Source of the DNA: an uncultured Chloroflexota bacterium
GTDB taxonomy: Bacteria; Chloroflexota; Limnocylindria; Limnocylindrales; Limnocylindraceae
Assembly: GCA_903851225.1 (NCBI GenBank)
Contig: CAINNT010000082.1
Coordinates: forward strand, 1-31,801
DNA: 31,801 bases
Direction: 5' to 3'
Made by a program: the position numbers and the translations under genes. A model generated the notes under the pieces. The model was not told the origin of the DNA, did no database searches, and saw only the letters and a program-made list of their open reading frames with translations. Positions 1 to 12,024 of the stretch are shown in pieces; within the stretch, counting starts at the first letter, position 1, and every line of letters begins with the position of its first letter.

Positions 1-407
1 AGGAAGAGGTCGAGTGCCAGGAAGACGCCGAGCATTCCCGTCTCGAGAATGAGGAAGCTGACGAAATACTCCTTCACGCGCGTCTGGATCGGCCCGAAGC
101 TCGCGAGGATGCAGATCCAGCTGAGCAGCGTCGTCAAGACAACGAGCGCTCCGGAGAGCCCGTCGACGCCGAGGTGGTAGGTGATGCCGAACGACGGAAT
201 CCACGAGAGCTGCTCGCTGAAGGCGAACTCGCCGCTCTGGCCGCGGATGCCCAGCAGCATGCCGAGGCTCAGCGCAAAGGTGACCAGTGAAACACCAAGT
301 GCGGCAGCGCGAATCAGGCCTGGTCGCGACGATGGAAGAAACGCGACGCCGAGCGCGCCGAGGAGTGGTAGGAAGATGATCAGCGAGAGGATCGGCATAT
401 CACTCAT
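1..407 (-). CDS. nuoM: NADH-quinone oxidoreductase subunit M, N-terminal part (runs off the window edge)
   Basis: Not in the ORF track; translated by hand from ATG 407 (ATGA overlap with the nuoL stop): MSDMPILSLIIFLPLLGALG...YHLGVDGLSGALVVLTTLL...KEYFVSFLILETGMLGVFLALDLF, a typical NuoM N-terminus; follows nuoL. Confidence 0.93.
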   Translation of the reverse strand, partial: MSDMPILSLIIFLPLLGALGVAFLPSSRPGLIRAAALGVSLVTFALSLGMLLGIRGQSGEFAFSEQLSWIPSFGITYHLGVDGLSGALVVLTTLLSWICILASFGPIQTRVKEYFVSFLILETGMLGVFLALDLF

Positions 408-2353
408 CCTGCGATCACCAGGTACGCCGCTGCGATGGCAACGAGGCCGAAGGCAATGCCAAGCGCATAGTTCTGCACGCGACCGGTTTGAATCTGTCGC
501 AGGCCACGACCGCCGCTTGAAGTGAGTGAGGCGACACCGTTCACCGTGCCGTCGACTACGCGACGGTCAAACCACCAGAGTGCGTTTGCAAACTTCCGCC
601 CGAAGCGTACGAAGACGAGGTCGTTGAGGTCGTCGAAGTACCAGCGGTTGCGACTCCCGTCGTAGAGCGGCTGCAGCCGCTTCGTCACGCGGCCGAGGAA
701 CTCGCCGTTGTCGCTGCGGAAGAGTCGCACGCCAACAACGGTGCCGATGGAGGCAACGGTGACGCTTGCGAGCATGAGTAGGCCATCGATGCCGAAGAGT
801 GTCCACGCCTCGTGTTCGTGGCCGAGCATCTCGCTCGCTGGGTGGAAGATCGGCTCAAGTGCATGCACCAGAACACCGTCGGCAAATGGGAAGCCGAGCG
901 CAGCGCCGATGGCAATTGATGGCACTGCAAGAATGATGAGCGGCAGCGTCATCGTCCACGGTGATTCGTGCACGTGCGATTCATCGTGCACGCGGCTCTT
1001 CCCCCAGAAGGTGAGTCCCATCAGTCGGAACATGTAGAAGGCGGTCATTGCGGCGACGATCATGCCAACGAACCAGACCCATGCGTACCCAAACTTGAAA
1101 GCCTCGCCGAGGATCTCATCTTTGGAGAAGAATCCGGCGAGCGGTGGCAGTCCAGCGATTGCCACGGTGCCGATCAGCATCGTTGCGTACGTGATTGGAA
1201 TCTTGCGCCAGAGTCCGCCCATCTTCGTCATCTCTTGCTCTCCGTTCACTGCGTGAATGACCGAGCCTGAGCCGAGGAAGAGGAGGCCCTTGAAGAAGCC
1301 GTGTGTGATGAGGTGGAAGATTGCGGGGATCCATGCGCCGACACCGAGGGCCGCAAACATGTAGCCGAGCTGTGAGAGAGTTGAGAAGGCGAGAACACGC
1401 TTGATGTCGGTCTGCGTGAAGGCAATCGATGCAGCGAAGATCGCCGTGAAGATGCCGATCGCCGCAACGATGAGCATTGCATCGTGGCTCGCGGCGAAGA
1501 GTGGGCTCATGCGCGCGACAAGATAGACACCCGCGTTCACCATGGTGGCGGCGTGGATCAGTGCGCTCACCGGGGTTGGGCCTTCCATGGCGTCTGGAAG
1601 CCAGACATGGAGTGGGAACTGCGCCGACTTGCCGACGGCGCCACAGAAGATGAGAAGGGCGATGACGGTGGCGGCGGGACCAACGAGGGCGCCGGCCTCG
1701 ATGCCAGCCAGCACCGTATGGATATCGAGCGAACCGAAGACCACCACGAGGCCCATCAGGCCGAGGGCGAAGCCGACGTCACCGACGCGGTTGGTAATAA
1801 AGGCCTTCTTGGCGGCCAAGCCCGGTGCCGTCTTGGTGTACCAGAACCCAATCAGCAGGTAGGAGGAGAGGCCGACCAGCTCCCAGGCGGCGAAGACCAC
1901 GAGGAGGTTGTCGGCGAGCACCAGCAGGAGCATCGAGAACATGAACAGGTTCAGGTAGGCAAAGAAGCGCCAGTAGCTGTCGTCATGGCTCATGTAGCCG
2001 ACGCTATAGAGGTGCACCAGGGCGCCGACCGTGGTCACCACCAGCAGTAGGGCTCCCGTGAGGGCGTCAACGTGCAGCCCGAGCCCGAAGTTCAGGTCGC
2101 CCGAGGCGATCCAGGTGAAGAGGGGCATCGACGCGCCAGCCTCACCGAGGCCCCCCGTAAGGGCGGGGATCGCGAGGCTCATGGCCAGCGCCCAGGTGGC
2201 GATGATTGCCCCAAGTGGGACCAGGTGGGCCAGCTTGCCGAGGCGGCGGCCGACTGCCGCAGTAAAGGCGAAGCCCATCAGTGGGAGGAGCAGCAAGAGC
2301 GGGGTGTAGCTCGGAAGTGCGCCCACCTCGACCACGGTCTCAGCAGTGAACAT
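404..2353 (-). CDS. nuoL: NADH-quinone oxidoreductase subunit L
   Basis: 649 aa; motifs WELVGLSSYLLIGFW, NRVGD, GKSAQFPLHVWLPDAMEGPTPVSALIHAATMV, STLSQLGYM, HGFFKGLLFL, Q(T)GRVQNY. Confidence 0.97.
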   Translation of the reverse strand: MFTAETVVEVGALPSYTPLLLLLPLMGFAFTAAVGRRLGKLAHLVPLGAIIATWALAMSLAIPALTGGLGEAGASMPLFTWIASGDLNFGLGLHVDALTGALLLVVTTVGALVHLYSVGYMSHDDSYWRFFAYLNLFMFSMLLLVLADNLLVVFAAWELVGLSSYLLIGFWYTKTAPGLAAKKAFITNRVGDVGFALGLMGLVVVFGSLDIHTVLAGIEAGALVGPAATVIALLIFCGAVGKSAQFPLHVWLPDAMEGPTPVSALIHAATMVNAGVYLVARMSPLFAASHDAMLIVAAIGIFTAIFAASIAFTQTDIKRVLAFSTLSQLGYMFAALGVGAWIPAIFHLITHGFFKGLLFLGSGSVIHAVNGEQEMTKMGGLWRKIPITYATMLIGTVAIAGLPPLAGFFSKDEILGEAFKFGYAWVWFVGMIVAAMTAFYMFRLMGLTFWGKSRVHDESHVHESPWTMTLPLIILAVPSIAIGAALGFPFADGVLVHALEPIFHPASEMLGHEHEAWTLFGIDGLLMLASVTVASIGTVVGVRLFRSDNGEFLGRVTKRLQPLYDGSRNRWYFDDLNDLVFVRFGRKFANALWWFDRRVVDGTVNGVASLTSSGGRGLRQIQTGRVQNYALGIAFGLVAIAAAYLVIAG

Positions 2354-2356
2354 CGC

Positions 2357-2677
2357 CTACTGCCTCATCGTGTCGTACTCGTCGACCAGCGGGGTCTTCC
2401 GGTTGCGGAAGATGGCGATCACGATCGCCAAGCCCACGGTGGCCTCTGCCGCCGCCACGGCGATGATCAGAAGCGCAAAGGCTGCACCCTGTCCCGCAAG
2501 TGACGGAATGAAAGCGCCCAGCGCGAGCGCGGCAAGGTTCACGGCGTTCAACATCAGCTCGATGCTCATCAACATGCTGATCGCGTTGCGACGCGCCAGG
2601 AAGCCGAATGAGCCGATGGCGAACAGCATTCCCGACAACACAAGGTATGGCTCAAGGTGTCCGGCGATTTGACTCAT
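2357..2677 (-). CDS. nuoK: NADH-quinone oxidoreductase subunit K
   Basis: 106 aa, 3 TM; RRNAISMLMSIELMLNAVNL and VAAAEATVGLAIVI. Confidence 0.96.
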   Translation of the reverse strand: MSQIAGHLEPYLVLSGMLFAIGSFGFLARRNAISMLMSIELMLNAVNLAALALGAFIPSLAGQGAAFALLIIAVAAAEATVGLAIVIAIFRNRKTPLVDEYDTMRQ

Positions 2678-3234
2678 GGGAGATCCTCGCCAACGTCGTT
2701 GGCCTTTGGCTCCATGGCGAGATAGATGCCGCCAATCACCGCGGCAAGGATGAGCACGCTTGCGATTTCAAATGCGAGCAGGTACGGCCCGAACAGTGCG
2801 GCGGCAACCGGCGCAGTTCCGGTTGCAGCTGGCGTGTCGGAGAAGACGGTTGAGCCCCACTCCGTGCTCCCGAAGGCAAGCCCGAAGACCACCGCAAGCA
2901 ATACTGCGGCAAGGGCCGCTGGAGCAACCTGTGTTTGGAAGGCCAACTTTACCGGTGCGACCTTCGACTGCGTGAGCATGATGGCGAACAGAATCAACAC
3001 ACTGATTGCGCCGATGTAGACGAGCACTTGCGCGCCGGCAACGATTGCGGCACCCAACATCACGTAGATACCGGCGAGTGCGCCAAGGGTGAGGATCAAG
3101 AAGAGACCGCTCTTGATGATGTCGCGGCCAAATACCACGCCGAAGGCGGCGGCGAGCACCACCCCGCCAAGGAGCAAGAAGAGGACGTCTGACCAACCGA
3201 GTCCAATGAACGGGATGACGTCTGGGAGCGGCAT
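2674..3234 (-). CDS. nuoJ: NADH-quinone oxidoreductase subunit J
   Basis: 186 aa hydrophobic; AQVLVYIGAISVLILFAIML and YLLAFEIASVLILAAVIGGI; directly before nuoK. Confidence 0.95.
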   Translation of the reverse strand: MPLPDVIPFIGLGWSDVLFLLLGGVVLAAAFGVVFGRDIIKSGLFLILTLGALAGIYVMLGAAIVAGAQVLVYIGAISVLILFAIMLTQSKVAPVKLAFQTQVAPAALAAVLLAVVFGLAFGSTEWGSTVFSDTPAATGTAPVAAALFGPYLLAFEIASVLILAAVIGGIYLAMEPKANDVGEDLP

Positions 3235-3237
3235 CAG

Positions 3238-5784
3238 TTACTTGCGCAGGCTCTGCGGCAGCACAGGGAGCTGTCGAGCTGGGTCGTAGCGCCGCCCAGC
3301 AACCGTGTTCTCCCAGTTGGCTTCTCCGCGAACGAATGTTGCCTCTGACGTGCGCTCGAGCTTCGACAGCGCGATAAGGTCGATCATTGGCTCACTGCGA
3401 TCGGTGTGTGCGAGCTCAAAGTCGAAGCCGCTGCGCAGCGCGTCATACGGGCACGCATCCACGCAGATGCCGCAGAGGATGCAGCGCGACTCGTCGACTT
3501 CGTACTTAGTGAGGATTCGTGGCTTCGGCATCAGCGCGCCGGTCGGGCAGGTCTCAGCGCAGCGACCACACGAGACACATGGCGATTCGTTCAAGCTCAT
3601 GTCGAGCGGGGTGGTTACGAGCGTATCGAATCCGGTGCGCATGAAGTCGTAGCAGGCGGCCCCAACAACTTCGGCACAAACGTTGGCGCAACGGCCGCAG
3701 TCAATGCACCGTGATGGCTCGCGCAGAATGAATGCGTGCGAGTCGTCGCGCAGGTAATCGTGGTTTGCACCGGTCCAGCGGTTTTCGGTGATTGAGCGGA
3801 ACCCGGCGCCGCCGTGATGATCCTTCTCGAGGGTCTTCAGCGTTGTGCCGTATTCGATGCCGAGGCGTCGCAGGTCGCAGAAGCCGATCGCTTCGCAGGT
3901 GCACTGCAAGCAGCGCGTGCTCTCGGCCATCACCTCTGGCTTGCTGTACGGAATTTCGTACTGGATGTAGTCGTTCTTGCGCTCTTCGGCCGGGAGTGCC
4001 TTCAGGCGCAACCGTGGCTCTTTCACCTCGGCGGTGAACGGCACGATGCTGAGGAACTCTGGCTGTGGCTCGGCGAGTGTCTGTCGGTTGCGAATCTCCG
4101 AAAGGTCGAGCCCCTGGAGGTACGCATCGACGGCGTAGGCGCAGCGTCGGCCGTCGGCGATCGAGGCGACGACGGTTGTTGCGCCGTTGCGCAAGTCGCC
4201 GCAGCCGAAGACGCCATCACGGCCGGTCTGGAAGGTGACGGCGTCTGCCTTGAGTCGGCCGTTCTTCGTGGTGGCAACGCCGTCGGCGCCGACGCTCGCC
4301 CAGGTCATGTCGGGACCCTGGCCGATCGCCTTCAGGATGCGATCGCACTCGATGATGAATTCTGTGCCTGGTGCTGGCTCTGGTCGTCGGCGACCCGATG
4401 CGTCGGGTGCGCCGAGCTGCATACGGATGAACTCGAGGCCGATCACCTTGTTGTTCGCGTCGGTGACGACGCGGGTTGGACCGGCCTGGAAGATGGCGCG
4501 CGCGCCCTCCTCGATCATCTCGTGGACTTCGTCGGCGGCTGGCATGTCCTTCATGTCGCGGCGGTAGACGAGGGTGACCTCCTTGGCTCCCTGGCGCACG
4601 CTGGTTCGGGCGCAGTCCATCGAGGTATACCCGCCGCCAACTACGACGACGCGGCTCCCCTCGTGATCTGGATAGGTGAGGCCGAGCGCGGCGGTGTGCA
4701 GGTAGTCACGTCCGTCGATGACCCCGTCAGCGTCTTCGCCTGGAATGCCGAGGTCGTTCGTGTCATAGCAGCCGATCGCAACAACGACTCCGTCGTAGCC
4801 CTGTGCTTTCAGGTCGGCAACGGTGAAATCACGACCGAGCATCTTGCCGCACTCGAACCGGCCGCCGAGTCGCGTGATCGACTGGTACTCGCCATCGAGC
4901 ACCTCGATCTTCGGCAGACGGTACTGCGGAATGCCGTAGCGCAACATGCCGCCCGGCTCTGGGTCTTTCTCGAAGATGGTGACGTCGTGTCCGGCGACGA
5001 GTAGGTAGTAGGCGGCAGATGCGCCAGACGGACCAGACCCAATCACCGCAACGCGCTTGCCCGTCTTTGGCTGGAGCTCGAATGGCACAGGTGGATCGAG
5101 ATTCTCGTCCCACATCGCCTTCAACACCTGGTCGCCGGCGTAGCGATGGCTATCGCGAATTGCGATCGCCTCGTCGACCTCGTCGCGACGGCAGTGGTCC
5201 TCACATGGTGCTGGGCAGACGCGACCGAGGATGCTCGGGAATGGAATGGTGCGCTTGAAGATGCGTGCAGACTCGCGGAACTGCGACTCAGCGTTCGCCT
5301 TCAAGAACCCAGGAATGTCGATATGGCTCGGGCACTTGTTCTGGCATGGCGGCAAGCAGTAGGCGTTGTGGTCGCTGAAGATCAACTCAAGGTTGGTGCG
5401 GCGAATTTCGCGAATGCGATCGGTCTGCGTCGATACGACCTGCGCAGGCTCAGCTTTCGCGGAACAACTGATGGATGGCTGATCGCACCCTTCGACATCC
5501 ACGACGCACATGCGGCATGCGCCGAATCCTGGAAGCTTCGGGTCGTAGCACAGGGTCGGAACTTCGATGCCGTTGGCGCGGCACACTTCAAGAATCGTCT
5601 GGCCCTCGAACGCTTCAAGCTTCTGCCCATCGATCTCGACGTAGAAGGTTGGTGTGCGCTGTGGTCGCTGTGGGCTGCGTGTGGTGAGCAGCTTGTCGAC
5701 GACGACTTCTGCAGATGGCGCTGGGGTGATCGCGCGAGAAACTGGTGTCACTGCGCTTGCCGGTCGATCAATCAGGTCGGCCAT
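3238..5784 (-). CDS. Chimeric Fe-S flavoprotein: NuoG/HoxU-type N-terminal Fe-S domains + nested GltD/SudA-type FAD/NADPH oxidoreductase + C-terminal half of NuoI
   Basis: 848 aa. 2Fe-2S ligands C79/C90/C93/C107; H139-x3-C143; GltD region aa ~144-629 (RVCPAPCEDHC, GSGPSG, GGMLRYGIPQYRLP, GGGYTSMD, VYRR, AIGQ, GD); C630-x5-C636; two CxxCxxCxxxC motifs (693-703, 736-746); third motif 768-778 in a NuoI-like tail (YEVDESRCILCGICVDACPYDAL..FDFELA). Confidence 0.9.
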   Translation of the reverse strand: MADLIDRPASAVTPVSRAITPAPSAEVVVDKLLTTRSPQRPQRTPTFYVEIDGQKLEAFEGQTILEVCRANGIEVPTLCYDPKLPGFGACRMCVVDVEGCDQPSISCSAKAEPAQVVSTQTDRIREIRRTNLELIFSDHNAYCLPPCQNKCPSHIDIPGFLKANAESQFRESARIFKRTIPFPSILGRVCPAPCEDHCRRDEVDEAIAIRDSHRYAGDQVLKAMWDENLDPPVPFELQPKTGKRVAVIGSGPSGASAAYYLLVAGHDVTIFEKDPEPGGMLRYGIPQYRLPKIEVLDGEYQSITRLGGRFECGKMLGRDFTVADLKAQGYDGVVVAIGCYDTNDLGIPGEDADGVIDGRDYLHTAALGLTYPDHEGSRVVVVGGGYTSMDCARTSVRQGAKEVTLVYRRDMKDMPAADEVHEMIEEGARAIFQAGPTRVVTDANNKVIGLEFIRMQLGAPDASGRRRPEPAPGTEFIIECDRILKAIGQGPDMTWASVGADGVATTKNGRLKADAVTFQTGRDGVFGCGDLRNGATTVVASIADGRRCAYAVDAYLQGLDLSEIRNRQTLAEPQPEFLSIVPFTAEVKEPRLRLKALPAEERKNDYIQYEIPYSKPEVMAESTRCLQCTCEAIGFCDLRRLGIEYGTTLKTLEKDHHGGAGFRSITENRWTGANHDYLRDDSHAFILREPSRCIDCGRCANVCAEVVGAACYDFMRTGFDTLVTTPLDMSLNESPCVSCGRCAETCPTGALMPKPRILTKYEVDESRCILCGICVDACPYDALRSGFDFELAHTDRSEPMIDLIALSKLERTSEATFVRGEANWENTVAGRRYDPARQLPVLPQSLRK

Positions 5785-5786
5785 GA

Positions 5787-7046
5787 TCAGCTCCGTCCGC
5801 TCGTTGATGTTGCCGACAGTGCGGCAACGGCAGGTCCAAACTCAGAGGCAAAGTATCGCACCCCCGTAAGGAGCGGGCTTGGCGCGAGCGCCTCGTGTGC
5901 GCAGAGGGCACTGTCGGCGACATCGGCAGCGAGTTTCTGCAGCCGCTCTGCATCGGCAGGGCCGGCGAGCCCATCGACAAAGCGCTGGCCGATCTCGGCG
6001 AGTCGACGAGTGCCGATGCGGCACGGGATCGTCTTGCCGCACGCCTCGTCGGCGCACCAGCGCGTCAACATGGTGGCGAGTTCGGGGATGGCGACGGAGC
6101 TGTCGAGTGCAAGGAGCGCGCCCGAGCCGATATGCGCGCCAACGCTCTTGAGGCCGGCGCCGCTGTATGGCGTGCCGCCGAAGAGGCTTGCTGGAATGAA
6201 TCCTCCAGTTGGTCCACCCACGAGCAACGCTTTGATTGACGCGCCACCTGCGGTGCCGCCTGCCGCTGCAATGATCTCGTTCAGTGGTGTGCCAGTTGGC
6301 ACTTCAAGCACACCTGGGTGTGCGACGGATCCGCTGATCTGCACGAGGACGGTTCCTGGCTGTGCGGTGTCGCCGATCTGCGCGAAGGCCTCCGCGCCGT
6401 TGTTCAGAATCCATGGCACCGCGGCGAGGGTGGCGACGTTGTTCACGGCGGTTGGCTTGCCGAGGTAACCGACTGTTGATGGGTATGGCGGGGTCTGCTC
6501 TGGCTGACCCCGCTTGCCGGCGAGCGCCTTCATCAGCACCGTCTCTTCGCCAATCATGCTGGAGCCCTGGAGTGGGCGGACGGTGATGATCAGCTCGCGA
6601 CCGGTGCCGAGCAGCGTTGTGCCAAGGATTCCCTCGCGCTCGGCGGTGGCGATTACCGCCTCGAGTCGTTTGATCGCTTCGGTGTACTCGGCGCGCACGG
6701 CGATGAACGCCTCGCGGGCGCCTACGGTGAGGGCGGCGATGGCGAGCCCCTCAACGATCGCCTGTGGGTTCTCCTCCATGAGGAGTCGGTTGGTGAATAC
6801 GGCGGGATCAGATTCATAGCCGTTCGCTACGGCGTAGTACTGGCTGGCTGGCTCGGCGGCCGTCGCCTGCCACTTCGTTCCCGTTAGGAAGCCGCCGCCG
6901 CCGCGCCCACGTAGGCCAGCGGCGATCAGGGTTGCGGTGGTGCCAGCCGGGCCTGCCGCAGCGGCGGCACGGAGCGCTGCCCACGGCTCAGCAGGGGCGG
7001 CAAACAGCAGCTGGCTCCAGCCCTTCGGTGCGTTCAGGCGCTTCAT
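5787..7046 (-). CDS. nuoF: Divergent NuoF/HoxF/HydB-family flavoprotein subunit
   Basis: 419 aa; GLRGRGGGGFLTGTKW, NGYESDP, VRAEY, GEET, GKRGQP, VNNVATL, GGPTGG, CGKTIPC...LCA. The fold is clear but several conserved residues are altered. Confidence 0.9.
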   Translation of the reverse strand: MKRLNAPKGWSQLLFAAPAEPWAALRAAAAAGPAGTTATLIAAGLRGRGGGGFLTGTKWQATAAEPASQYYAVANGYESDPAVFTNRLLMEENPQAIVEGLAIAALTVGAREAFIAVRAEYTEAIKRLEAVIATAEREGILGTTLLGTGRELIITVRPLQGSSMIGEETVLMKALAGKRGQPEQTPPYPSTVGYLGKPTAVNNVATLAAVPWILNNGAEAFAQIGDTAQPGTVLVQISGSVAHPGVLEVPTGTPLNEIIAAAGGTAGGASIKALLVGGPTGGFIPASLFGGTPYSGAGLKSVGAHIGSGALLALDSSVAIPELATMLTRWCADEACGKTIPCRIGTRRLAEIGQRFVDGLAGPADAERLQKLAADVADSALCAHEALAPSPLLTGVRYFASEFGPAVAALSATSTSGRS

Positions 7047-7864
7047 GCGGCGTACCTGCCGGCGAGAGCGGCGGCCCAGCTCGCAGCGTTCTTCGCGCTG
7101 AGGTCACGCTGCGGCTCTCCATCAATGACCACAAGCGGTGACGGTGCGCCAGCAACGTGGCTCGGAAGCGACTCAAGACGCAAGTTGCTCCACGGGATCG
7201 CCCGGCCGAACTCGGTGCCGAACTCGTAGCTCAGGGTACCCATCACTGCACCCGCTCCGGAGACGAGGCAGTTGGCGCAACGGCAGACGGCGATCGAGCG
7301 GGTCACCCCGGGCTCGAATGCGAGGTGCTTATAGAAGGTGGCGGTGCCATAGACCATGGCGTACCAGGCGCCGGTCGCGCGGCTGACACGCTTGAGCGCA
7401 TCGACTGGGAGGTAACCGTATGCGCCTTGGATCGCCTCGAGGATCGCAAGCATGTGGTGAGGGTCGTAGTCGTGCGCTTCGAGAATCTCGTCGACTTTGG
7501 CGATGTCGATGGTTGCCCCTGTCGCCGCCGCCGCGTCGGAAACCGTTCGACCGGAGCGACGGATCGCCGACTCTTCGCGTCGTTCGGCGTACTGCTCGGC
7601 GGGCCCCCAATGCACGGCGAAGCGACCCTTCGTGTCGGTGCCACCCATGTCGATGCACTCAATCGGACAGGCCTGCGCGCACTGGAAACAGGTCTCGCAC
7701 TTCAGCGTGCCGTGTTCGTCGGTGACCAGCTCAAGTCGGCCGCGATTGCGCGGCGCAATGTCGGGCTTCGCCTCTGGATACATCACCGTGCGCTTCGGCT
7801 GGAAGAAACGCGTGAGCGTGAGGCGCATTCCCGAGAGCAGTCCGGAGCCTGGAATACGTGGCAT
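7043..7864 (-). CDS. Fusion of NuoI N-terminal half (one 4Fe-4S motif) and a NuoE/HoxE-like domain
   Basis: Start reassigned to ATG 7864 (GGAGG SD, 2 nt after the nuoH stop) instead of 8140; 273 aa. aa 1-73: GMRLTLTRFFQPKRTVMYPE..PRNRGRLEL..KCETCFQCAQACPIECI (NuoI-like). aa 120-273: LAILEAIQGAYGYLP..VYGTATFY..IAVCRCANC (NuoE-like). Confidence 0.88.
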   Translation of the reverse strand: MPRIPGSGLLSGMRLTLTRFFQPKRTVMYPEAKPDIAPRNRGRLELVTDEHGTLKCETCFQCAQACPIECIDMGGTDTKGRFAVHWGPAEQYAERREESAIRRSGRTVSDAAAATGATIDIAKVDEILEAHDYDPHHMLAILEAIQGAYGYLPVDALKRVSRATGAWYAMVYGTATFYKHLAFEPGVTRSIAVCRCANCLVSGAGAVMGTLSYEFGTEFGRAIPWSNLRLESLPSHVAGAPSPLVVIDGEPQRDLSAKNAASWAAALAGRYAA

Positions 7865-7866
7865 GA

Positions 7867-9207
7867 CTACCTCCCCGCAATCAGCACGGCGAACGCCGTC
7901 GCGAAAATATTGAGCAGCGATGCTGGCAGGAGCCACTTCCAGGCGAAGCCCATCAGCTGGTCGATGCGTGCGCGTGGCAGCGTGCCGCGCATCCACACAA
8001 AGGTGAAGACGAGCGCGAACGTCTTGATGAGGAACCAGATGAGGCTCGCAACGGGTGGCAGCATCACAAAGGCCCAGATGCCAACAGCTGCGGTTGAGAC
8101 GCCGCCGAAGATGAGGAACCCAGCGACAAGTGCCTGCCACCCTTTGACACGACTGCTCGCAAACCAGATTGGGGCCGCAAAGAGCAACGTGCCAACAATT
8201 GGCGCTATGCCTGCGATGAGCGGCAACCCAATCCCAAGCGCGCTCAGGTCAATCAGGATTTGCGGATTGACATCAATGTGAATCGGCGGGTTTGATCCGC
8301 CGAGGAAGACGGCGCTGAAGAGTGCCGAGACGATGAAGACGTTCACGTACTCTGCAAAGAAGAAGAAGCCAAAGCGCATCCCTGAATACTCCGTCGCAAA
8401 GCCAGCGACGATCTCTTGGTCAGCTTCGGCATTGTCGAACGGGGTGCGGTTTGCTTCGGCGGTGATAGCGATGAAGAAGATGATCGCAGCGAGTGGCTGG
8501 CGGAAGATGAACCAGTCGAGGAACGAGCCGTCTTGTGCGGCGACGATCTTCGGCAGCGAGAGTGTGCCGGTGAGGATCACGATTCCCACAACGGAAAGTG
8601 TCAGTGGGATCTCGTAGCTGATCGCCTGTGCTGCGGCGCGAATGCCACCGAGGAGCGAGTACTTGTTGAACGATGACCAGCCGGCCATCATCAGGCCAAC
8701 GACGCTGAGCCCGCCGATTGCGAAGAAGTAGAGGAGGCCAAGCTCAAAGCCCATGCTCGTGAGCTCTGGTGCAAACGGAATGACGAGCAGCGTCATGAAG
8801 CTTGCGAGATAGACAACCACTGGCGCAAGTGTGAAGACTGGAACGTCGACGCTCGGTGGCGTGTAGTCCTCCTTCATCAGCACCTTGAGGCCGTGCACCA
8901 CGCTCATCACCGCGCCCGCTGGGCCGATGCGATCAGGTCCGATGCGCAGGTTCATGAGCGCAATGATCTTCATCTCCATGTAGATCAAGAGGAACGCGAC
9001 GGGTACCGAGATAAGGAAGGTGACGACCGAAGCGACGAGGAAGCGCACGATCGGCAGATTTGCGCCGATGGTCGCGGCGATGGCGCCACCAAATGTTGCA
9101 AGCAGAACGGTTGTTAGTGCGCCGCCGATGGCAAGGACTGGAAGTAGCACGGCGAGGATGCGACCGGCTGGCGTGAGGCGGTTCCAGGCCATCGATGCGC
9201 CGCTCAC
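7867..9207 (-). CDS. nuoH: NADH-quinone oxidoreductase subunit H (long form)
   Basis: 446 aa; LRIGPDRIGP, GLKVLMKE, GWSSFNKYSLLGGIRAAAQAISYE, EANRTPFD, TEYSG, RGTLPR.RIDQLM; GTG start overlaps the nuoD stop. Confidence 0.96.
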   Translation of the reverse strand: MSGASMAWNRLTPAGRILAVLLPVLAIGGALTTVLLATFGGAIAATIGANLPIVRFLVASVVTFLISVPVAFLLIYMEMKIIALMNLRIGPDRIGPAGAVMSVVHGLKVLMKEDYTPPSVDVPVFTLAPVVVYLASFMTLLVIPFAPELTSMGFELGLLYFFAIGGLSVVGLMMAGWSSFNKYSLLGGIRAAAQAISYEIPLTLSVVGIVILTGTLSLPKIVAAQDGSFLDWFIFRQPLAAIIFFIAITAEANRTPFDNAEADQEIVAGFATEYSGMRFGFFFFAEYVNVFIVSALFSAVFLGGSNPPIHIDVNPQILIDLSALGIGLPLIAGIAPIVGTLLFAAPIWFASSRVKGWQALVAGFLIFGGVSTAAVGIWAFVMLPPVASLIWFLIKTFALVFTFVWMRGTLPRARIDQLMGFAWKWLLPASLLNIFATAFAVLIAGR

Positions 9208-10415
9208 TTGTCGACTCCGCCCATGACTGGGTCGAGGCTGGCCATCACCGCCATGGTGTCGGCGATGAGGTTCCCCTTGGTAAGTGGTCCAACAAGTTGC
9301 AGGTGCACGAATGACGGATCGTGGATGCGCATGCGGAACGGCTGGTCGGTGCCGTCGCTGATAGCGTAGGTGCCGTACACGCCGCGTGGCCCTTCGACGG
9401 CGCCGAATGCGCGACCTGGTCGCGGACGCAGCAGTCGCGGCAGTTTCGCCATCACTGGGCCGTCGGGCATCTCATGAAGGACCTGATCGATGATGCGGAT
9501 CGACTGCTTGATCTCGTCCATGCGCACCAGATAGCGGGCCAGCGAGTCACCCTCGTCGCGGGTCGGCACATCGAACTCCAGCTCCGGGTAAACCAGATAC
9601 GGGCGGTCGCGGCGCAGGTCGAACGGCACGCCGCTCGCGCGGAGGTTTGGACCGGTGACGCCCATCTTGAGCGCCGTCTTTGCATCGAGAACGCCGAGGC
9701 CGCGGGTGCGGCGCACGAAGATCTCGTTCTCGTTGATCAGCGCCAGGTTGGAGTCGATCTGCGCGGCGGCGCGGCTCATCCACGTGCCGAGGCGGCTCAT
9801 GAACTCGTGGTTCAAGTCGCCGTTCACCCCGCCGATTCGGTAGTAGTTGTAGAGGAGCTTCTGGCCGGTAAGAGCGGCAAGCATGTCGACGATCTCGTCG
9901 CGCTCGATGAACGCCCAGAGGATCGGGGTGATGCCGCCAAGGTCAAGGGCCATCCAGCCTTGGAACAGGGTGTGACTTGCGATGCGGTTGAGCTCCATCG
10001 TCAACACGCGGATGTATTGAGCGCGGCGCGGCACGTCGACATCCATCAGCTTTTCGAATGCTGCGACGGGTGCCGCCTCGCAGAAGAGCGAGCTCACATA
10101 TTCGAGCGGATCGGTGTAGCAGATCGCCTGGTGGTAATCGGCGTTCTCGCAGAGCTTCTCGACTCCACGATGCAGATAGCCGAGCACCGGATCAAGGTCG
10201 ACGACCTTCTCGCCGTTCACCTTGATGATCACGCGGAGTACGCCGTGGGTCGAAGGATGCTGTGGTCCCATGTTCACGAACATCTCGCCTTCGCGCAACG
10301 TGAGGAACTCTGCCTGGCGCTCCGTCTGTGGAGATGGTGCCGGCTCGTACCACGTTGAGTCGGCGGGGATTGCAACGCGTGGATCGTCGAGCGATGGACG
10401 CATCTGCTGTGTCAT
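9204..10415 (-). CDS. nuoD: NADH-quinone oxidoreductase subunit D
   Basis: 403 aa; NMGPQHPSTHGVLR, GYLHRGVEK, ELNRIASH, GPNLRASG, VEGPRG, DPVMGGVDK; no NiFe-ligating CxxC pairs. Confidence 0.97.
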   Translation of the reverse strand: MTQQMRPSLDDPRVAIPADSTWYEPAPSPQTERQAEFLTLREGEMFVNMGPQHPSTHGVLRVIIKVNGEKVVDLDPVLGYLHRGVEKLCENADYHQAICYTDPLEYVSSLFCEAAPVAAFEKLMDVDVPRRAQYIRVLTMELNRIASHTLFQGWMALDLGGITPILWAFIERDEIVDMLAALTGQKLLYNYYRIGGVNGDLNHEFMSRLGTWMSRAAAQIDSNLALINENEIFVRRTRGLGVLDAKTALKMGVTGPNLRASGVPFDLRRDRPYLVYPELEFDVPTRDEGDSLARYLVRMDEIKQSIRIIDQVLHEMPDGPVMAKLPRLLRPRPGRAFGAVEGPRGVYGTYAISDGTDQPFRMRIHDPSFVHLQLVGPLTKGNLIADTMAVMASLDPVMGGVDK

Positions 10416-10417
10416 CG

Positions 10418-10969
10418 CTATACCCCAGGGCTCTTGCGGAGCACGGTTGCTGCTGTCGCATCAGCCGGCGTTCCAACTCGCTCCATGTTGCGCACGCCAG
10501 CGGCGGGTGATCGAGATGCGTCGTCAGCGAGGTAGAAATCTTTGCGAAGCGGATGGCTTCGGTAATCATCGGGCATATAGATGCGTCGCAGATCACGATT
10601 CCCTTCGAAGATGATGCCAAACATGTCGTACGCTTCGCGCTCCATCCATTCGGCACCTGGCCACATGAATGTGGCCGATGCGATGCGCGGTGCACTGCGA
10701 TCCAGGCCCGAAACGATGACGCGAAGCCAGTCGCCGCTCTTCGACGAAGAGAGGTGGTACACGACCTGCATCTCTTCGCCGGTGTCGACGCCGCAGAGAT
10801 CGATCAGCATTTCAAATCGAAGGGCTGGATGATCGTGAAGGGTTCGCAAGGTATCGGTTGCATCCTTGAGCGCAATGCGAATCTCGCTCTCGTCATAACG
10901 CTGACGCACTGGCGCGAGCAGTCGCTCACCAAACGTCTCTTGTAGGAGTGCAGCGAGACGGCGATCCAC
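10418..10969 (-). CDS. nuoC: NADH-quinone oxidoreductase subunit C
   Basis: 183 aa; LIDLCGVD, VVYHL, AEWMEREAYDMFGIIFEG, HPLRKDF. Confidence 0.95.
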   Translation of the reverse strand: MDRRLAALLQETFGERLLAPVRQRYDESEIRIALKDATDTLRTLHDHPALRFEMLIDLCGVDTGEEMQVVYHLSSSKSGDWLRVIVSGLDRSAPRIASATFMWPGAEWMEREAYDMFGIIFEGNRDLRRIYMPDDYRSHPLRKDFYLADDASRSPAAGVRNMERVGTPADATAATVLRKSPGV

Positions 10970-11677
10970 TTAGATCCCCTTCGGAACGGTTGGACCGATC
11001 GCGCGCTCTGGCCAGTGGCCGCGGCGATCTTTGACCAGCTGCTGCAACTTCATCATTCCGTAGATCAGTCCCTCTGGTCGTGGTGGGCAGCCAGGGATGT
11101 ACACATCGACTGGCATGACACGATCGATTCCTTGCACCACGGAGTAGCTGCGCTTGTAGCGTCCACCAGAGCAGGTGCAGTCGCCCATAGCGACAACCCA
11201 CTTTGGCTCGGGCATCTGCTCCCACAAACGAATCAGCGGTTCGGCCATCTTTGTTGTGAGGGTTCCGGCAACGATCAACACATCTGCCTGACGTGGGCTT
11301 GCGCGGAAGGGGAACATGCCCCATCGATCAATGTCGTTCTTTGGTGTTGCAGTGGACATCATCTCGATCGCGCAGCAGGCCAGGCCAGAGAGCAGCGGCC
11401 ACAGGCTATTTGCCCGAATCAAATCGAGCACGACATCGGCCTTTGTTGGGATTGCAGAGAGCGCGCCGCTCCAACGCGCATCATCAACACGGCCGTCACC
11501 GGTTGCGTCGTATCGCGCAAGCTCTAGGTTTGGGTGTGCCTCGAGTGGCAGCCCACCGTAGGCACGCGGGTCATCGGTGCTCCACAGGGTGTTGCCCACG
11601 ATCGTTGGTGACTGGACGCTGCCGTCTGGCTGCACCTCAGGCAGGTTGCTGAACTTTGGGTCGCGCGTTATCGCCAT
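10970..11677 (-). CDS. nuoB: NADH-quinone oxidoreductase subunit B with N-terminal extension
   Basis: 235 aa; [49 protein letters not shown] (N2 ligands present). Confidence 0.96.
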
Positions 11678-12024
11678 GCCAAGACCCCCTTGCGCCAGGC
11701 GTAGGCGAGGCCAACGAGCAACACGCCGATGAAGATCGCCATGGAGATCAGGCCGTCCATCAAGAGGACCTTGAAGTTCAGTGCCCAGATATAGATGAAG
11801 ACAATCTCAACGTCAAAGGCGACAAAGAGGAGTGCGTACAGGTAGAAGGAGAGCCCGAATCGTCCGTGGGTGTCTCCATAGGTGTTGATGCCCGACTCGT
11901 ACGGGACCTGCTTGCCCCGACTGCCGCGGGTGCGGTGGGAGATCAGCCATGCGATGCCGATGGTGAGGAAGACGAAGGAGATACCTGCTCCTGCGAAGCC
12001 GAGGACGTACCAGAGTCCTGTCAT
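11668..12024 (-). CDS. nuoA: NADH-quinone oxidoreductase subunit A
   Basis: 118 aa; [32 protein letters not shown]; SD GGGGAG upstream. Confidence 0.96.

Follow-up and report, generated by a model that had tools for sequence, protein, structure and literature searches.

Complex I is commonly regarded as an enzyme of reduced nicotinamide adenine dinucleotide (NADH), and in the variants known so far the electrons come from ferredoxin, from F420 or from an unknown donor. This study concerns a nuo (complex I) operon on a stretch of 31,801 nucleotides (the window: positions 1 to 31,801, forward strand, of contig CAINNT010000082.1 in assembly GCA_903851225.1) from an uncultured lake bacterium of the Chloroflexota and, in particular, the gene in its nuoG/nuoI slot, which encodes a protein of 848 amino acids (aa) with a GltD-type flavoprotein nested inside it. 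The source assembly comprises 1.17 Mb and is 71% complete; its close relatives are named Candidatus Limnocylindrus (Chloroflexota, Limnocylindrales). Conservation was followed in 80 loci from species-level Limnocylindrales genomes, and gene order was judged as far as each contig reaches.

Anatomy of the 848-residue subunit

The gene and the segments of its product are as follows; FAD denotes flavin adenine dinucleotide, NADPH the phosphorylated form of NADH and pLDDT the predicted local distance difference test score of the structure model.

3241..5784 (-), stop codon 3238-3240: 848-aa subunit in the nuoG/nuoI slot; N-terminal Fe-S wire of NuoG, nested GltD-type flavoprotein and C-terminal half of NuoI
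5410..5643 (-): [2Fe-2S] domain of N1b/HydA type, aa 48-125 (C79, C90, C93, C107); Pfam Fer2_4 at 49-121, E 7.5e-17; cysteines invariant in the 80 relatives
5356..5409 (-): first half of the N5-type His-ligated cluster motif, aa 126-143 (H139-x3-C143); PF10588 profile positions 1-17 at aa 128-144; H139 and C143 invariant
5080..5355 (-): GltD Fe-S subdomain, aa 144-235, ligands C147, C151, C190, C194 and C198; Fer4_20 profile positions 27-110 at aa 143-222
4105..5079 (-): predicted FAD and NADPH Rossmann domains, aa 236-560; Pyr_redox_2 at 244-545, E 1.3e-28; motifs invariant; pLDDT >90
3898..4104 (-): linker and returning segment, aa 561-629, with the permuted start of the GltD Fe-S domain, RCLQC, at 624-628; Fer4_20 profile positions 3-29 at aa 604-630; C625 and C628 invariant
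3850..3897 (-): second half of the N5-type motif, aa 630-645 (C630-x5-C636-DL); best-conserved block of the protein, 99% mean identity
3520..3714 (-): two-cluster ferredoxin domain of HydA/HoxU type, aa 691-755 (C693/696/699/703 and C736/739/742/746); Fer4_Nqo3 and Fer4_7 matches; aligned to 9bov_A
3355..3519 (-): C-terminal half of NuoI, aa 756-810, with the second CxxCxxCxxxCP motif at 768-779; TIGR01971 profile positions 71-117

The contiguous N5 motif of NuoG, H-x3-C-x2-C-x5-C, is broken in this protein, with 486 residues separating C143 from C630. An earlier note on this DNA, made from the letters alone, had described the interruption by a GltD-like insert of about 485 aa, and every residue number that it quoted is right: a script run on the translation places the codon of H139 at 5368-5370, C143 at 5356-5358, R624-C628 at 3901-3915, C630 at 3895-3897 and C636 at 3877-3879. 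The same note had taken the GltD unit to be circularly permuted, with its usual N-terminal RCLQC at 624-628. This is borne out at the profile level, because the two Fer4_20 matches complement each other: the start missing from the first match (profile positions 3-29, RCLxC) matches aa 604-630 when that piece is scanned by itself, with an E of 0.012 that is weak alone but a position exactly complementary to the first match. Three CxxCxxCxxxC(P) motifs occupy the last third of the protein; in the alignment, the pair at 693-746 falls on the ferredoxin domain with two clusters of NfnA and HydA. The molybdopterin-like domain of NuoG, already reported as missing, was not found in the 848-aa protein by profile scans, with no match to PF00384.

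The motifs for FAD and the pyridine nucleotide, which had been called intact, were all found and of the types given, namely GSGPSG at 249-254, GGGYTSMD at 383-390, VYRR at 406-409, GRRRP at 464-468 and GD at 529-530. They are invariant in the 80 genomes (as GxGPxG, GGG[FY]T[SA]MD, VYRR, GRRRP and GD), as are all 31 Cys/His ligands, on which ground we rejected a decayed relic or pseudogene. Alignment, conservation and fold match agree on a complete GltD/NfnL-type unit with an NADPH-type signature, under strong purifying selection. The presence and invariance of YRR, the 2'-phosphate signature of the predicted FAD/NADPH Rossmann folds, point to a GltD feature. The protein does not fit a collinear GltD with GltB as its partner (303.6 bits with the GltD model TIGR01318 versus a cut-off of 483, a permuted Fe-S domain and nuo genes as neighbours), nor does it fit a full NuoG: TIGR01973 gave 83.9 bits against a cut-off of 470 and matched at profile positions 1-134 and 124-214 only. 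NuoG features that the protein does possess are a nuoF neighbour within a nuo operon and sites of N1b and N4 type. A match to NCBIfam PRK12814 has an E of 1e-162, which is far from anything that chance would give.

Among proteins of known structure, 9bov_A (NfnA of Caldicellulosiruptor saccharolyticus) aligns best, continuously over aa 49-779 (E 5.8e-164), followed by 8oh5_C (StnC of Sporomusa ovata) and 9n5u_A (NfnA of Thermococcus sibiricus), each over aa 49-780; the series H-x3-C ... RCLxCxC-x5-C is common to all. The nesting that the earlier note had likened to soluble Bfu enzymes is thus the layout of NfnA and StnC. A structure model of the 848-aa protein, built on 34 sequences, has a pLDDT above 90 in the flavoprotein, and a Foldseek search with it places the same three structures on top, followed by NfnL (5jca_L, NADP(H)-bound, root-mean-square deviation 2.3 Å), GltD and DPD. 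The NuoI half is disordered in this single-chain model (pLDDT below 50), as is expected because only half a domain was modelled alone.

These matches bear on which nucleotide the domain would use. It might take NADH, or both nucleotides equally; the complex would then be an NADH:quinone oxidoreductase of the usual kind in which another dehydrogenase site has replaced the original. The site in NuoF is altered (see below), and some site must oxidise NADH if no NDH-2 exists. Against this, VYRR and GRRRP are invariant and match those of the NADPH-using NfnA, StnC, NfnL, GltD and DPD, and NADH-dependent GltD-like domains are not known to have the Arg pair. We regard an NADH-using GltD domain as distinctly improbable.

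The nuo operon, its split NuoI and its distribution

The remaining genes of the operon are listed in order of transcription, which reads A-B-C-D-H-[NuoI N-half::NuoE]-NuoF-[848-aa protein with NuoI C-half]-J-K-L.

11671-12024 (-): nuoA
10973-11677 (-): nuoB, N2 ligands canonical
10421-10969 (-): nuoC
9207-10415 (-): nuoD, quinone-site motifs canonical
7870-9207 (-): nuoH, upstream of the input genes
7046..7864 (-): fusion of the NuoI N-terminal half to a NuoE-like protein, 273 aa; first CxxCxxCxxxCP motif, then a NuoE-like thioredoxin fold without the second N1a cysteine pair
5790..7046 (-): NuoF-like subunit of BfuB descent, 419 aa, without the extra BfuB domains; second N3 cysteine replaced by Thr339
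2677-3234 (-): nuoJ, downstream of the 848-aa gene
2360-2677 (-): nuoK, downstream of the 848-aa gene
407-2353 (-): nuoL; the region nuoJ-nuoL spans 404..3234, and nuoM runs past the window edge

The 848-aa protein is wired into complex I more tightly than first claimed, as it ends in the C-terminal half of NuoI. The NuoI profile TIGR01971 is covered at positions 1-64 by the NuoE fusion and at 71-117 by the 848-aa protein, with no overlap. With 45-50 bits apiece, both halves fall short of the cut-off of 113, and the two motifs that a NuoI carries in one polypeptide of ~160-180 aa are here distributed over two. A profile search of the assembly found no second NuoI or NuoG. Since the profile halves lie on two proteins and no other NuoI was found, the sequences describe a NuoI that is split, its halves fused to the outer proteins of an E-F-G' cassette. 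The start of the NuoI'-NuoE gene is almost certainly the ATG at 7862-7864, which is preceded by GGAGG and lies just after the nuoH stop; the longest open reading frame, from a GTG at 8140, would overlap nuoH by ~270 bases (window 7867-8140).

The order A-B-C-D-H-[I'E]-F-[G'GltD-I'']-J-K-L is kept in all 80 Limnocylindrales loci. Outside the genus, the median identity to the window protein is 75% for the 848-aa subunit and 76-77% for NuoD and NuoB, whereas NuoF, at 54%, has the lowest value among the subunits; the 848-aa protein is thus one of the best conserved, and no subunit evolves faster than NuoF. Three genomes of the genus, two of which are 92-93% complete, each encode a single NuoD and a single NuoF-like protein, and no complex I other than that of this operon was found in the genus.

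Relatives of the 848-aa protein at E <= 1e-120 are present in 68 of 301 sampled Chloroflexota genomes, and most extend into the NuoI half. The operon is retained in the sister family of the class. Ktedonobacteria, among them the cultured Thermogemmatispora carboxidivorans, carry a four-gene cluster nuoB-I'E-F-GX apart from their other nuo genes, together with a canonical complex I. Both T. carboxidivorans and strain T81 have this cluster (WP_052888283), with a large protein of 802 aa. In T. carboxidivorans the cluster (L095:3930-10675) stands back to back with an isocitrate/isopropylmalate dehydrogenase gene, and the Ktedonobacteria genomes hold a second NuoD of the window's type elsewhere. 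Thermoleophilia (Actinomycetota) carry the same operon with a split NuoI; two of their large-subunit relatives (P0320, P0362) have a C-terminal NuoJ match (PF00499), which suggests that nuoJ has been fused on as well or that the gene call has run two genes together. A tree of 61 proteins set the complex-I-linked forms against 44 long StnC/NfnA-like proteins. The complex-I-linked forms all fall on one side of a branch with 100% support, a topology compatible with their single origin. The type I NADH dehydrogenase of Thermomicrobium roseum has been given as 'nuoA-E,H-N', with no F or G and with nuoA-D at trd_1780-1783 (Islam et al., 2019, PMC6776052); this cultured species, for which RNA-seq data exist, may have the same kind of operon.

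A three-gene cassette within a nuo operon could in principle be a separate soluble enzyme, with a complex I that works without it. Many Chloroflexi have indeed been scored as 'lacking only NuoG', and hence as lacking complex I (Spero et al., 2015). Such a division is hard to reconcile with the fusion of both halves of the essential NuoI to the outer proteins of the cassette, with no other NuoI found, or with the order fixed in 80 of 80 loci and a cassette that travels with nuoB in Ktedonobacteria, and we give it hardly any credence.

A second GltD-like flavoprotein is encoded in the source genome (contig C158, L005:2-1863), directly upstream of a cytochrome b gene. Its tail ('AESTRCLMC') is permuted in the same way, it carries YRR, and at its C-terminus lies a ferredoxin domain with two clusters; such a paralog, with 36-39% identity to aa 142-630 of the 848-aa protein, occurs in every relative searched. 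The gene pair is reminiscent of the Rieske/cytochrome b complexes, equipped with a module for NAD(P)H, that have reportedly been proposed for anammox bacteria.

Nucleotide sites and the proposed electron route

The NuoF-like protein scores ~300 bits against Bfu B subunits and 225-250 bits against NuoF of complex I. The five residues that contact NADH in NfnB of C. saccharolyticus (G156, F159, K164, E274 and F294) correspond to G50, F53, K58, E168 and Y188, and all five are kept. None of the 78 Limnocylindrales proteins has the second N3 cysteine; Thr or Ser stands in its place. Directly after the fourth cysteine, His384 and Glu385 are invariant, and a spare Cys331 occurs in only 60 of the 78 (window NuoF residues 331-342 and 382-385). 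It is possible that His384 replaces the lost cysteine in a cluster with three Cys and one His ligand. The NuoF motifs of Limnocylindria have changed from NADE to NGY[EG] and from GxPR to GQPE. In the NuoE-like domain (7046-7513), the second N1a cysteine pair is absent in all Limnocylindria and the first pair is deleted in 39 of 73; because of these losses, in all relatives and in about half of them respectively, the thioredoxin fold very probably holds no cluster. The three lineages compare as follows, FMN denoting flavin mononucleotide.

Thermoleophilia: NuoE-like protein with four cysteines kept; NuoF BfuB-like, with an N-terminal thioredoxin-like domain, sometimes a C-terminal ferredoxin domain and canonical FMN, NADH and N3 motifs; GltD NADPH motifs kept in ~96 of 107 proteins and lost in one subclade
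Ktedonobacteria: NuoF with N3 intact, adenine-stacking Phe and several motif residues changed; GltD NADPH motifs kept
Limnocylindria: GltD NADPH motifs kept; N1a and N3 sites altered

Across Chloroflexota, the GltD NADPH motifs stay intact and the NuoF/NuoE motifs erode stepwise. The opposite trend is seen in the Thermoleophilia subclade (L102:7079-11487, L093:8-3687), where the GltD NADPH signature is lost (GDGFAA, no YRR, no GRRRP) and a full BfuB-type NuoF with its C-terminal ferredoxin domain is kept. A strict reciprocal decay of the two sites, considered and rejected as a rule, holds for Chloroflexota and this subclade and is usable only as a trend because the main Thermoleophilia lineage, with both sites intact, breaks it. 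We also rejected the view that NuoF is dead, as its NADH contacts are kept and its divergent residues are themselves conserved, not random; judged from its residues, the site is remodelled and not demonstrably dead.

Descent from BfuABC suggests that the module might still be a bifurcating or confurcating enzyme, in which NADPH together with reduced ferredoxin or NADH would drive quinone reduction. Confurcating 'Nuo-Bfu' complexes have been predicted in other phyla (Schut et al., 2022, PMC9304861), and in some of the Thermoleophilia relatives the BfuC cluster and the ferredoxin domain at the C-terminus of BfuB are still present. In the window, however, NuoF is without both extra domains of BfuB, the thioredoxin-like [2Fe-2S] domain at the N-terminus and the 2x[4Fe-4S] domain at the C-terminus, the NuoE-like domain is without a complete cluster site and the FMN-adjacent cluster has lost a cysteine. 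The lost parts are those that the Bfu papers name as the bifurcation site, and we hold continued bifurcation to be very unlikely.

On the structural side, the module is matched in architecture and fold by StnC and NfnA, in which NADPH reduces FAD and electrons leave through the cluster chain. For this reason, and because ligands and motifs are invariant, the gene order is fixed, the NuoI halves are complementary, no other complex I was found in the genus, the GltD motifs of Chloroflexota persist where those of NuoF and NuoE erode, N2 and NuoD are canonical and an oxidase is present (heme-copper oxidase in all five genomes checked), we favour NADPH input into a proton-pumping complex I, which we consider probable. 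With comparable confidence, we take the 848-aa protein for the large subunit, of BfuA/StnC type, of an input module that derives from a transhydrogenase and has become part of respiratory complex I. NADPH would be oxidised by the FAD of the GltD-type domain, and electrons would pass singly through the two GltD [4Fe-4S] clusters to the His139-ligated N5-type cluster, at the very site of domain insertion, and onward through the ferredoxin-like clusters to the two clusters of NuoI. NuoI itself would be assembled from two half-domains, with which the 848-aa protein ends and the NuoE-like protein begins. From there electrons would reach N2 in NuoB and then menaquinone, driving a normal proton-pumping membrane arm. 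The NuoE/NuoF-like pair, kept but remodelled, might serve as a second fuel site for NADH or as a scaffold. From the relatives and the motifs of this complex we infer that it binds its cofactors and is specific for NADPH, which route the electrons follow and in which direction, and that their transfer is coupled to proton pumping. As for respiratory partners, MenA is clear in two relatives (G030, G139), whereas the match in the genus itself stays under the family cut-off. Four RNA libraries from rivers and lakes yielded contigs that lie patchily along the whole operon, some without mismatch; this fits its expression, with DNA carry-over possible.

The earlier note had gone further in calling the GltD domain the real electron entry point. 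An intact unit of NADPH type, wired into complex I, stands; a role as sole entry point is no more than possible, because NuoF keeps its five NADH contacts and the Thermoleophilia relatives keep both nucleotide sites intact. Of the genome checks suggested there, that for transhydrogenases found PntB, which is encoded in genomes of the genus. That for NDH-2 (PF22366) gave no match in the genus and is uninformative, the same search having been positive in only 3 of 14 control reference genomes.

Several points weigh against NADPH input. The preference for NADPH over NADH is a deduction from motif (YRR, GRRRP) and homology. NuoF keeps its NADH contacts and, in most of the order, the canonical FMN loop, so that NADH may be used as well, or even predominantly. 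The geometry between the module and NuoI/NuoB is not modellable, the NuoI half being unstructured in the single-chain model, and the RNA-library contigs are no proof of transcription. The burning of NADPH by an aerobic heterotroph is physiologically odd, and the Pnt transhydrogenase could supply NADPH or make the module unnecessary.

The kept NADH contacts also agree with a reversed assignment, in which NADH via NuoF is the working input and the GltD domain is mainly an outlet to NADP+. The electrons for it would come from NADH, in a transhydrogenase built into the complex, or from menaquinol, by reverse flow driven by the proton-motive force. The parent StnABC and NfnABC enzymes are reversible transhydrogenases, and both sites are intact in Thermoleophilia. 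In Limnocylindria, on the other hand, the N3 cysteine is lost, N1a is gone and NuoF is the fastest-evolving subunit, and the genomes already encode PntB. Electron transfer from menaquinol to NADP+ is steeply uphill, and an uncoupled leakage from NADPH to NAD+ would be costly. An NADP+ outlet of this kind therefore seems unlikely to us.

NADPH input also has a strict form, in which the sole complex I of Limnocylindria would be an entirely NADPH-dependent, proton-pumping NADPH:menaquinone oxidoreductase with cofactor-poor scaffolds for NuoE and NuoF, NADH entering only by way of NADPH made by PntAB. We regard this stricter form as doubtful; if it is true, the higher driving force of the NADPH couple would offset the low potential of menaquinone.

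Should NADPH input and a NuoI made of two polypeptides be correct, the operon would represent a natural experiment on the grafting of input modules onto an ancient membrane pump and would imply that two chains can together form a ferredoxin fold with two clusters. Models of energy metabolism would change for very abundant freshwater and soil Chloroflexota, whose genomes were earlier scored as "lacking NuoG". Cultured carriers (Thermogemmatispora) make the idea directly testable.

Comparison with known systems

The nesting of a GltD-type domain is itself already known, because the papers on the Stn and Nfn-Bfu structures describe it, together with a path from NADPH via FAD and two clusters to a NuoG-like wire. 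Like StnC and NfnA, with which it shares 37-39% identity over ~730 residues, the 848-aa protein consists of an N-terminal [2Fe-2S] domain, a GltD/NfnL-type domain nested at a His-ligated motif (H139-x3-C143 aligns with HRGDC of 9bov_A) and a two-cluster ferredoxin domain, and the gene order of E-like, F-like and large subunit is that of StnABC and NfnABC. Unlike StnC, it is without the Fdh/molybdopterin-like C-terminal domain needed for the Stn tetramer and carries half of NuoI instead. At the position of Lys170, the fourth ligand of the FAD-adjacent cluster in StnC (PMC10482914) and a Glu in NfnL, stands His213, which is invariant in all complex-I-linked forms examined. In contrast to Nfn-Bfu, the B-like subunit is without both extra domains and one cysteine, and the C-like subunit has no cluster and bears the other NuoI half; moreover, whereas the Nfn-Bfu enzymes of anaerobes are soluble, the present module is encoded inside the nuo operon of an aerobe.

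The predicted 'Nuo-Bfu' clusters comprise 14 nuo genes with BfuABC-type E/F/G and have been listed for Deferribacteres, Proteobacteria, Planctomycetes and Nitrospirae (Schut et al., 2022, PMC9304861). Their Bfu-family input module of a complex I-like proton pump, situated in the middle of the nuo cluster, resembles that of the window in both Bfu descent and position. They differ in that BfuA is of the conventional kind and has no GltD domain, BfuB is complete and of the bifurcating type and nuoI is intact, with NADH and ferredoxin as predicted substrates. The BfuB ferredoxin domain, absent in the window, is present in some Thermoleophilia relatives, and the published listing holds no Chloroflexota or Thermoleophilia forms, NADPH site or split NuoI.

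In the Mbx-like clusters of Thermotoga and proteobacteria, NuoI is substituted by a GltD-related flavoprotein (Degli Esposti, 2015, PMC4758237). These clusters likewise couple a membrane module related to complex I, near the position of NuoI, to an NAD(P)H flavoprotein of GltD type. These are of the ferredoxin-oxidising, NADP+-reducing Mrp/Mbx type with no NuoE/F/G-like part, whereas in the window NuoI is kept but split and the module is of the StnABC type.

Full-text literature searches found no description of the present arrangement. Compared with canonical complex I (Nqo1-14 of Thermus thermophilus, NuoA-N of E. coli), the subunits A, B, C, D, H, J, K and L are ordinary, and the N2 ligands, the NuoD motifs and the N1b, N5-type and N4-type sites are shared. 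The differences are an N5 motif split by 486 residues, the missing molybdopterin-like domain, an extra cluster in the ferredoxin domain, NuoI distributed over two polypeptides, nuoH placed before the input genes, the absence of N1a and an N3 site with three cysteines. The nesting is known from soluble enzymes; its setting inside complex I, together with a split NuoI, is what is unusual.

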